Made by a program: the position numbers and the translations under genes. The notes beneath the pieces are model-generated. The model was not told the DNA's origin. It worked only from the letters and a program-made list of their open reading frames with translations, and did not search any database. From assembly GCA_039621445.1 (NCBI GenBank), contig CP154954.1:44309847-44373846 (forward strand): 64,000 bases of DNA, read 5' to 3'. Shown piece after piece: positions 16,901 to 19,900 of this stretch (position 1 is the stretch's first letter; each line of letters opens with the position of its first letter). The DNA comes from Euglena gracilis (Eukaryota).

Positions 16901-19900
16901 AATCAGCAAAATTCGTAAGCAATTCTGCCGCAAACTTCTTTCAAATGGCGGAAACTTGCCGCTCTGCTGCAAACTTGCCCTGTTTACGCAAATCCATCCC
17001 CGCTTTTTATCACCGACTCCCCGGAGGGTGGCGCCGTTGGGGAGACCTCCGGCGGGCCGATGACGGGGCAGAGGCGCTCCCAGTCCTCCAGCAGGAGGTG
17101 CTTCAGCCCCAGATGGGCCCCGTCCGGACCAGTCATCAGAGCTCAGAGCGGCATCTGTTGGAGGCATATACAAATGGGGTTTTGGTTTGGCGTTTCTGCT
17201 AGCCCACAAAGTATGCCAACGTGTTCCGGCGGTATCTGAAAAAGCTGCTGTCCCACCCTCTGTGGGGGCATGGCACGAATGTGAACGAGGGGAAAAGGTA
17301 GCCCCATCCCGGTGGTTTTCCTGGAAGTTTGAGGATGGGGTATTCTGAGGAGGCTTGACAGACCGTTTTCCTGTGGCATCAGAGGAGGAGGAGCACAATC
17401 CGCCGGCGCTTCGGCTGGGGCGCAAACTACGCTGTTGGTCGGTTGCCTCCGGAAGATCAGCGCTCCTCGACGTTCCGCCCCGGCAAACCCATAATCAGCC
17501 CCCCCCCCCTCCCCCTGCAGAAGGATGGCCGACGGCAACCGATGGCCACGGCAGTGGCGGGGGGGGGGGGAGGGGGGACTGAGGCGGGCCCCAGGCGGGA
17601 GCCGTCCACCAGCTCACGCCGCACGGCGGCCACCACGGGCTCCGCCGCCGTGGGCTCGGCCGGGAACGCCTCCGCCAGGCTGGCCCCGACGAAGGCGCCC
17701 GGCCTCTTCTTTTTCGAAAGACCGCCTTTCCACTGGCGGACCAGTTTGCGGACCGGGGGACCCTGGGGGTCCCCCCGCCTGGGAACAACGTTCTTCCGGC
17801 GCTGTGGTGGACCGCACCAAAGGTGGAGAAGGGCTTTTAATGTGTTTTTTTTTGGCTGATTTGTTTCCAGGCATCCCCCCAGCAAGACCCCCCCCCCCCC
17901 CCCGGGAGGTCCAATAGGATTTCCCCCAGCCAAATCGGGGTCACCCGGGGTCGAGCCCCCACCAGGGGGTTCTGCGAACCCTTAAGCAGAAGCCTGGAAG
18001 GTGCACACCTCCTCCACCGACCACGCGGCGGCGGCGCTGGGGGGCGGCGCCGTGCGAGGGGCAGCGCTGGGGGGGGCGGGCTGGGGGCCAGGGCGTCCCC
18101 TTCAAAACCGGGGGCCGGAGGGTTTCTTACTGTCCCCAGCACCAAAACCCATCCATCCTTCCACGACCCCCCCCCCCCAGGGCAGGCGGTGCAAAGCGTG
18201 GTGTGGGGAGGGTCGACCCCCCACACACCACAGCATTTTGCCGGGGACAATCCTTTTGGCGCCGGTGGGCCCGAAAGCAAATTTTGATCCAAATTCGCAC
18301 CTGGGGAAAAGACAGGAAGGGGGGTGGGTGGTGGAGAGGAGGGGGGGGGGATTCAACCAACCCATCCACAACCCATTTTCTGGAATTTCTGGTTTTTGGG
18401 TTTCCTGCTCAGTCCTCCCCATGGACCCCAAATCTGTCTAAATCTTCCACCAATTTGGGTGGGGTCAACCACAACGCACACACACCTACAAAATACACAC
18501 ATGCGCATACGTCGAAGGAAGATCTTCTGCAATTTCTCTTTGCCTAAGGAGGGATCTGACTGATGAATGCCTCCCCCAGGAGGGGGCGCAGCAGGGACCA
18601 ACACGCCCGACGCACCAGGGGGCGCGCGCGCGCCACACATCCACACACACACACACACACACACAGCACACACACACACACGAACGCACGCACCCACACA
18701 CACTCACACACACACACACACACACACACACACACACACACACTCACGCACGCACGCAACGCACGCAACGCACGCAACGCACGCACGCACGCACGCACGC
18801 ACGCACGCACGCACACACACACACACACACACACACACACACACACACACACACACACACACACACACACACACACACACACACACACACACACACACAC
18901 ACACACACACACACACACACACACACACACACACACACACACACACACACACACACACACCTGCAATCTCCCCTCCAAAGTGGTGTGGTCATGTGGTCAT
19001 GCAGTTCAAATGTCAGTGTGGTCATGCAGTTCAAATGAAATTATGAGAAATCTTGAAACACAAGAAGCGTCGCCTTTCTATTTCAGAGTGAGAGGCAAAA
19101 AATAACACCGGTGTCCTTCTTTCCATGGTGTATACAACGCACGCAAGGCTGCCACTGCCACAACGCTTTTGCTTGCATGAACATCGCACGCAGCGCTGCC
19201 ACTGCCGGGGCCGGGGGTGCCGGCATGGGCTTCTTGCGGGACAGCTGCCGGTGGTTCCGCTCCTGGCGCCCGATGTACTTCTGCAAAGCCGCGGGCAGAG
19301 AACCGCCAGCACAGCGGCTCAACCCCTAGCATTTGAAAAAAAAATTCAATAAAATAATGTAATAAAAACAAATTAAAAAAATATAAAACTGACAAATTAA
19401 AAAAATATAAAACTGAAACATAAACAAAAAAAATACAAATAAAGAGTGGATTTGCTTGCCAAAGAAATCGCTTTGGTCTTTCCAGTTTTGTGCGCCCTGC
19501 AGAGGCAGACACACAATTTGGAAATCATTTCCAGAGTAGCCACCATGCCGGGATTGCAAATTTGTACAACACGGCCATATCTTTGCTGCGGGACGTTACA
19601 GTGGTGTCTTTGCGGGTGCTGCTTGCAAAACAAAAACAGAATACGAACATACACTGGTGCAGCCCCTTGCTCACCCCTGGATCAGAACATGACTTATTGA
19701 CCCCCCACCCCCACGTGGGGGAGGGGGGTGACTAACGACTTAAAAAATCACACACAACACAACGACCAGCCAGTCACTCATGGAAAACCAGTCAGCCACT
19801 TCCGACTCAGAGGTTGGACCTGGGGGGCGGTGACTCTGGCTTCTTCAATCAAAATCTGACTTGGGACCCCCTCGTCAAACTGGCTCAAAGTCCATCGATT

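Follow-up and report, generated by a model that had tools for sequence, protein, structure and literature searches.

Positions 17691-18004 of the minus strand of the window, a 64,000-nucleotide stretch of the Euglena gracilis genome (GenBank assembly GCA_039621445.1, contig CP154954.1, 44,309,847 to 44,373,846), contain a miniature transposable element with inverted repeats (MITE) that interrupts a reading frame. We consider it likely that the stretch represents a nonconventional intron of the euglenid type, created by insertion of the MITE into a coding exon. The element is flanked by a target site duplication (TSD) and belongs to a repeat family with further copies in the window. In an assembled contig, 306 nt are missing at this place, and the borders of the missing stretch are not spliceosomal. 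A relative of the element is removed in parallel from the same transcript. All positions below are numbered from the first letter of the window.

The focal element spans 17996-17699 on the minus strand, is 298 nt long and has imperfect terminal inverted repeats (TIRs). Its 5' terminal repeat reads CAGGCTTCTGCTTAAGGGTTCGCAG, and its 3' end is degenerate (...AAGAAGAGGCCGG); by direct reading, 11/13 positions are complementary between the first and the last 13 bases, with one G-U. On the minus strand, the text runs GAG GAG GTG TGC ACC TTC and then enters the element at CAGGCTTCTGCTTAAGGG. At the other end, AAGAAGAGGCCGG is followed by GCGCCTTC and then by GTC GGG GCC. The first TSD copy, GCACCTTC, lies at 18004-17997 and the second, GCGCCTTC, at 17698-17691; they are identical at 7/8 positions. 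Among 8-mers that lie 306 nt apart in the gene region 13000-18200, matches of at least 7/8 occur with a frequency of 0.0006 (0.008 for at least 6/8), which argues that the flank match is real and not a chance pattern. Microsatellites inflate the corresponding figure for the whole window, 0.011. A TAA at 17984-17982, inside the element, is in frame. The peptides ...WSVEEVCTF and VGASLAEAF...RRELVDGS on its two sides belong to one minus-strand frame with an offset of 306 nt, or 102 codons. Direct reading therefore confirms the coordinates and letters of the initial annotation, which had described a 298-nt minus-strand element with 7/8 flanks and an in-frame TAA. Taking out the element and 8 further nt, which in its view rebuilds a SAM helix-1 motif, reconnects one frame by the same arithmetic, and the spliced contig agrees.

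RNA was placed on 12800-18600, using the raw runs X21, X22 and X24 (about 5-6% of each), which were picked by species label, together with the contigs of X15. Among the data sets listed as containing the stretch, none is recorded as RNA. The key molecule is X15 record 3, a contig of 429 nt at a depth of 34.3. It contains 16510-16614 (record positions 1-105), 54 letters from 17054 onward, and 17596-17690 (record positions 160-254). An X15 contig also has a 119-letter loose end at 18052. Since 429-254 leaves 175 letters, which equals 56+119, the remaining piece of record 3 is 17997-18052. One piece thus ends at 17690 and the next resumes at 17997, so that 17691-17996 is skipped, which is 306 nt or the element plus 8. 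Three observations support this reconstructed junction. When joined, the exons make up an uninterrupted frame of 102 codons. Raw RNA reads of all three runs span the neighbouring joint 16614>17054, whose shorter side is 54 (7 reads in X21, 3 in X22 and 1 in X24). Finally, the depth in the bin 17650-17843, which includes 153 intron bases, is 0.1-1.2 and approximates the contribution of its 41 exonic bases.

The end of the exon piece at 17690 also narrows down the place of the cut within the duplication. The initial annotation had proposed to distinguish the possible cuts by the codon at the junction, ACC (Thr) or GCC. If the GCGCC variant of the TSD were kept, the piece would extend to at least 17696. 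As it stops at 17690, the codon is ACC, and at least the first 3 nt of the first TSD copy and the A of this codon stay in the mRNA.

The same end point bears on the most conventional alternative, in which an ordinary spliceosomal intron happens to overlap an old transposon. This intron would use GAG|GT at about 18008 and an AG near 17706 and yield the peptide ...WSVEE-RPGAF..., an outcome that the initial annotation had named as the one that would overturn its reading. A GT does follow GAG at 18008, an AG precedes AGGCCGG, and the pair preserves the frame. However, such splicing would extend the exon piece to 17705, whereas the piece in record 3 ends at 17690 and, by the arithmetic above, resumes at 17997. 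The rest of the transcript points the same way. We listed every register compatible with the cDNA for nine introns of the transcript (minus strand, 13253-19207), and GT/GC-AG borders are absent in every allowed register of 9/9 introns. Taken together, an ordinary spliceosomal intron is extremely improbable here.

Every intron seen in the transcript is nonconventional, and intron lengths range from 167 to 1155 nt. Four of the nine introns fit the euglenid code exactly. This code, 5'-N3CDG-/-CH'GN5-6|R, was defined by knock-in experiments in Euglena (Nomura et al., PMC12501133). The fitting introns, all on the minus strand, are 14385-14705 (ACA-CAG-CGCC...GGCG-CTG-GGCCT|G, not slidable), 13254-13752 (GAG-CAG...CTG-TGACC|G), 15840-16006 (GCC-CGG...CCG-CCCAC|G) and 15487-15796 (GAT-CAG...CTG-CCCCCC|G). 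The last of these contains the related copy discussed below. For the focal intron, six registers are allowed, from 17691-17996 to 17696-18001. They start with CA, CC, TC, TT, CT or CC and end with TC, TT, CT, CC, GC or CG, and none of them is GT/GC-AG or AT-AC. A 3-nt donor spacer followed by CAG at +4..+6 is present in 1/6 registers, 17694-17999, where the 306-nt intron reads TTC-CAG...CGG-GCGCC|T.

The focal element is one of four full copies, 298-387 bp long, which together with one terminal-repeat relative are found within the 64 kb of the window. The three other full copies, listed in the initial annotation, do exist; their ends lie at 8036-8422, 27798-28171 and 35393-35746, all on the minus strand. 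The ends of the non-focal copies are CAGGC...GCCTG, and the copy at 35393-35746 has degenerate ends. Blocks common to the four copies include an end ...CTGCGAACCCTTAAGCAGAAGCCTG, a block GGAAATCC...GGACC and a block CCACCT...CAGCGCC. When a profile is made from only the three other copies, it finds the focal element with an E-value of 7.3e-20 and a score of 65.1, aligning profile positions 1-266 to 17996-17787. As this match is limited to the 5' two thirds, the 3' third of the focal copy has diverged. In local alignments, the focal copy matches the other copies at z 9.6 to 16.7 (standard deviations above shuffled sequences). The copies are old, with pairwise identities of 43-61% in MAFFT alignments. 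At the terminal-repeat borders of the five elements, the 8-bp flanks agree at 7, 8 (with one extra G allowed), 6, 6 and 2 of 8 positions, so that 4/5 copies reach at least 6. The degenerate 8-bp flanks that the initial annotation had ascribed to all the other copies were thus recovered for 8036-8422 and 27798-28171 (6/8 each), and the copy at 35393-35746, which it had placed at about 35402, has no recognisable TSD (2/8). With terminal inverted repeats, an 8-bp TSD at independent copies and several short copies at unrelated loci, the elements have the defining features of MITEs, and they constitute a MITE-like family with an 8-bp TSD and CAGGC...GCCTG ends. Long open reading frames are common in the GC-rich DNA of the window, and frame continuity across the three other copies, which the initial annotation had called ordinary insertions, is uninformative about whether these are introns.

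A second element with similar ends is spliced out of the same transcript. A fuzzy search with the terminal repeat pointed to 15767-15793 and thereby to a relative at 15493-15793 on the minus strand (CAGGCTTTC...GAAGGCTG). Its flanks are ATCGGGGG / ATCGGGGG, with an extra G on the left, and agree at 8/8 positions if this G is allowed and at 5/8 if it is not. The relative aligns to the focal copy at z 9.6. The stretch removed here is 15492-15801 (310 nt), a second intron of the focal transcript. In X15 record 2 (1400 nt), 15491 is joined to 16004 with 36 letters between them. These letters correspond to a micro-exon at 15802-15836 on the minus strand, which shows that the relative is removed together with its duplication.

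In the window, the micro-exon measures 35 nt, against 36 letters in the RNA contig. The difference is an extra G in a G run, and it alters the downstream reading frame as read from the window; an assembly error at the homopolymer or a strain difference would explain it. The adjoining intron 15837-16003 (167 nt) carries another inverted repeat, which is perfect over 11 nt (CGGGGCTGGCT / AGCCAGCCCCG), a CGG-CCG motif and 6/8 octamer flanks, and may belong to another small family of elements that serve as introns. Inside the intron 13253-13751, a 56-nt stretch at 13336-13386 is 75% identical to the terminal-repeat region 15734-15789, and may represent a nested or fragmentary relative in another intron.

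The existence of a family bears on a third explanation of the direct repeats. Here, the intron came first and the transposon inserted into it later, or the 8-nt repeats arose during repair of a double-strand break. Direct repeats at new introns can indeed come from break repair, as discussed in PMC4770533, and the 3' third of the element has no match to the family profile. Against this, the length removed is exactly 298+8 = 306 nt, and the ends of the intron coincide with the terminal repeat and the TSD. Break repair also does not predict that family copies at unrelated loci carry their own 8-bp repeats (6/8, 6/8 and 8/8). We therefore regard both versions of this scenario as very unlikely, and infer that the direct repeats stem from transposition.

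How well does the focal stretch fit the known class? With euglenid nonconventional introns (Milanowski et al. 2014, 2016; Nomura et al. 2025), it shares the lack of GT-AG borders, a CAG at +4..+6, terminal inverted repeats, direct repeats that make the junction slidable, and precise removal from the mRNA. It differs from them by a 3' motif of CGG or CCG instead of CTG, an unpaired +5/-7 and C|T borders at both ends. These and several other points weigh against the assignment. In the CAG register, positions -8..-6 read CGG, which leaves an A-G mismatch at +5/-7; a 6-nt acceptor spacer would make the motif CCG, at -9..-7, and the mismatch A-C. The downstream exon begins with T, and a G in this place is found only in a register that lacks the donor spacer. 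In the knock-in experiments, single changes in CTG ended splicing of the test intron (PMC12501133). In PMC4770533, +5/+6 and -8/-7 are paired in 55/55 introns, and the downstream exon starts with a purine in 55/55. The duplex between the ends of the focal intron has a predicted energy of -29.1 kcal/mol, and 41/300 shuffled sequences are as good. Folding of the whole intron gives a z of +0.51, with 67/100 shuffles at least as good, and the minimum free energy structure leaves the terminal repeats unpaired. With regard to the transcript, the type of X15, 'RNA?', is a guessed label, and the focal junction and the piece 17997-18052 were reconstructed by arithmetic from one X15 contig and not read off. 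Finally, the relative at 15493-15793 is only weakly alike to the three other family copies (z 2.2-3.8), and should thus be seen as a sharer of the terminal repeats, not as a full family member.

Even so, 38.8% of nonconventional introns in E. agilis are without the full signature (PMC12501133). The C|T borders, to which the initial annotation had drawn attention, are the outcome of choosing the CAG register and represent a real departure from the pyrimidine|purine pattern. The focal intron is accordingly a deviant member of the euglenid nonconventional introns.

An alternative that would leave the splicing system out altogether is that the RNA derives from an empty-site allele, or from somatic DNA without the insertion, while transcripts of the filled allele are degraded. 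This possibility also counts against our assignment, because a precise empty site is indistinguishable from the precise removal of the element with one TSD copy. In addition, the best-matching DNA data sets contain only about half of the sampled words. Yet the neighbouring introns are missing from the X15 contig as well, which makes it cDNA-like, and the 15493-15793 relative and every other intron here behave alike. Moreover, a persisting polymorphism is unlikely for copies as old as these. Removal of such introns at the RNA level has been demonstrated by knock-in in Euglena (PMC12501133). On balance, we give the empty-site explanation very little credence and favour an intron derived from the MITE.

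We propose the following sequence of events for the origin of this intron. A MITE with CAGGC...GCCTG ends and an 8-bp TSD would have inserted into the codons ...C-T-F|V... near the N-terminus of the protein and duplicated 8 bp of the exon. The nonconventional splicing system of the host would then recognise the paired CAG.../...C(T)G ends and cut 3 nt upstream of the CAG of the element and, at the other end, 5 nt beyond the last element base. In this way, the element would leave the RNA with 8 nt. Because the 3+5 spacer nucleotides amount to one 8-bp TSD copy, the sequence that preceded the insertion would be restored in the mRNA. This 3/5 cut register, which matches N3-CAG/CTG-N5-6, is the most likely one. 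On the basis of the literature, removal probably takes place at the RNA level, without the spliceosome and with formation of a circle.

If the spacers are remnants of a TSD, traces of it may be visible in other introns. We compared the octamer formed by 5 exon nucleotides and N3 with that formed by N5 and 3 exon nucleotides in ten introns, adding intron 0 (described below) to the nine. They are identical at 8, 7, 6, 4, 4, 4, 3, 2, 2 and 1 of 8 positions. This test supports the correspondence between the 3+5 spacers and the length of the TSD. The recently gained nonconventional intron in gapC of E. agilis also fits, as it is flanked by direct repeats of eight nucleotides; the authors of that report invoke break repair (PMC4770533). 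We tentatively raise, without favouring it, the wider idea that the nonconventional code of Euglena is the footprint of one transposon superfamily, in which CAG...CTG would be the TIR and the fixed 3-nt and 5-nt spacers the two parts of an 8-bp TSD. The machinery would then take each element out of the RNA along with one TSD copy and so recreate the empty site.

Transposons that became introns are known from other lineages. Introners, found in Micromonas, Aureococcus and dinoflagellates among others, are likewise non-autonomous DNA transposons that turned into introns within exons. Their borders are set by TIR and TSD, and bases derived from the TSD leave with the element so that the coding sequence is restored. 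They are nevertheless spliceosomal, with GT/GC-AG sites to which the element or the TSD contributes in part (PMC11282704). The focal intron, in contrast, has no such sites in any register. In the tunicate Fritillaria borealis, non-GT-AG introns have reportedly been traced to MITE insertions (by Henriet et al. in 2019, as cited in PMC11282704 and PMC11170887). These introns are said to depend on an adapted U2 spliceosome for their removal, and to have other border patterns. The focal intron resembles them in being MITE-derived and non-GT-AG, and differs in its border patterns and in its host, as Fritillaria is an animal with a compact genome. As to the superfamily of the element, hAT transposons have 8-bp TSDs and ends of the form YARNG, with which the 8-bp TSD and CAGGC end found here are compatible. 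Merlin elements share the 8-bp TSD, and two Merlin families with such duplications are reported from E. gracilis; Merlin ends are given as 5'-GG (PMC8101967), whereas the focal element begins with CA.

A source of transposase was not apparent within the window: 169 open reading frames of at least 130 amino acids were listed, and none looked transposase-like by eye, no profile scan of them having been made. A scan of metagenomes with the terminal-repeat pattern gave 0 matches, and an Rfam scan of the window gave 0 matches. The internal part of the family profile has additional partial matches with E-values of 1e-6 to 1e-3, including 6553-6715, 39309-39514, 56689-56859 and 58827-58965 (1.6e-6 to 3e-4). 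These may be fragments, or related families with a common internal module.

The interrupted gene can be followed upstream and downstream of the insertion on the minus strand. The 119-letter loose end leads into an upstream exon that a 14-nt motif places at 19208-19326, with a T-rich tract and an AG in front of it. Intron 0 (18053-19207) separates it from exon 1 (17997-18052; 56 nt), which is placed by the arithmetic given above and ends ...WSVEEVCTF. Exon 2 (17596-17690; 95 nt) begins with VGASL and is followed by exon 3 (17054-17107; 54 nt), which is connected through the 16614>17054 joint to exon 4. The visible part of exon 4 is 16510-16614, and the X15 contig stops at 16510. The first ~85 residues of the protein look like a SAM domain when compared by eye with the consensus. 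Since the first in-frame ATG lies in the upstream exon (19226-19224), this SAM-like region is at the very N-terminus. A Pfam search with three single-exon fragments returned only a DUF at an E-value of 0.8, and a sequence search of the PDB with exon 2 gave 0 matches. When homologues were sought with a 40-residue translation from the window that includes exon 2, and with longer lengths, 0/158 candidates had E <= 1.

Further downstream, the RNA-supported minus-strand exons 14706-14807, 14269-14384 and 13752-13896 share one frame and encode a hydrophobic, membrane-protein-like sequence, for which a Pfam search with three fragments returned 0 families. The contigs are interrupted between 16510 and 16150, close to a GTGGG repeat (16363-16398), and the membrane-like exons may or may not belong to the gene with the SAM-like N-terminus.

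At 17556-17577, 17888-17906 and 14668-14685, many joints and loose ends with high counts were rejected as poly-G/poly-C read artefacts at homopolymers. Introns contain G/C runs of 12-20 nt at these three places, to which poly-G reads of the RNA runs are drawn by the hundreds, resulting in spurious joints, opposite-strand links and a seeming A>G at position 17571. Intron 0 contains a (CA)n array of ~330 bp at 18634-18960, and ~900 bp at 53400-54350 are rich in (CA)n. At 47500-49300, a tract of ~1.8 kb translates in all frames into homopolymeric amino-acid runs.

The intron class itself and its suspected MITE origin were known before. The latter was proposed in 2014, when no euglenid transposable element was known (PMC3935182), and a review of 2024 depicted CAG/CTG as the terminal repeats and the repeats at the junctions as 'TSD-like' (PMC11282704). 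As late as 2025, the origin was called 'unclear', or the idea 'plausible to assume' (PMC12501133, PMC12621601). Between 2014 and 2025, the origin is described as unclear or as a mystery, and the MITE idea is based on inverted and TSD-like repeats alone (PMC3935182, PMC4770533, PMC12501133, PMC12621601). Our search, outside of which lay subscription journals and supplements, turned up no publication naming a family that has both intronic and other copies, or tying the spacers to an 8-bp TSD. What appears to be new here is a specific family whose 8-bp duplications equal the 3+5 spacers of the code. The focal intron can be assigned to a repeat family with an 8-bp TSD, a relationship that these papers only hypothesise.

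Taken together, the window provides a concrete case for the old idea that the nonconventional introns of euglenids began as transposons. A full member of the family and a terminal-repeat relative are both removed from one mRNA, and the family carries its own 8-bp duplications at several loci. This is useful, direct evidence at the family level for a transposon origin, and the hypothesis becomes testable genome-wide on published assemblies. If the code is indeed the footprint of a transposon superfamily, each new exonic MITE insertion would be born spliceable, which could explain why most introns in these genomes are nonconventional. In that case, the focal copy would show that a considerably decayed 3' repeat is still accepted by the splicing system.

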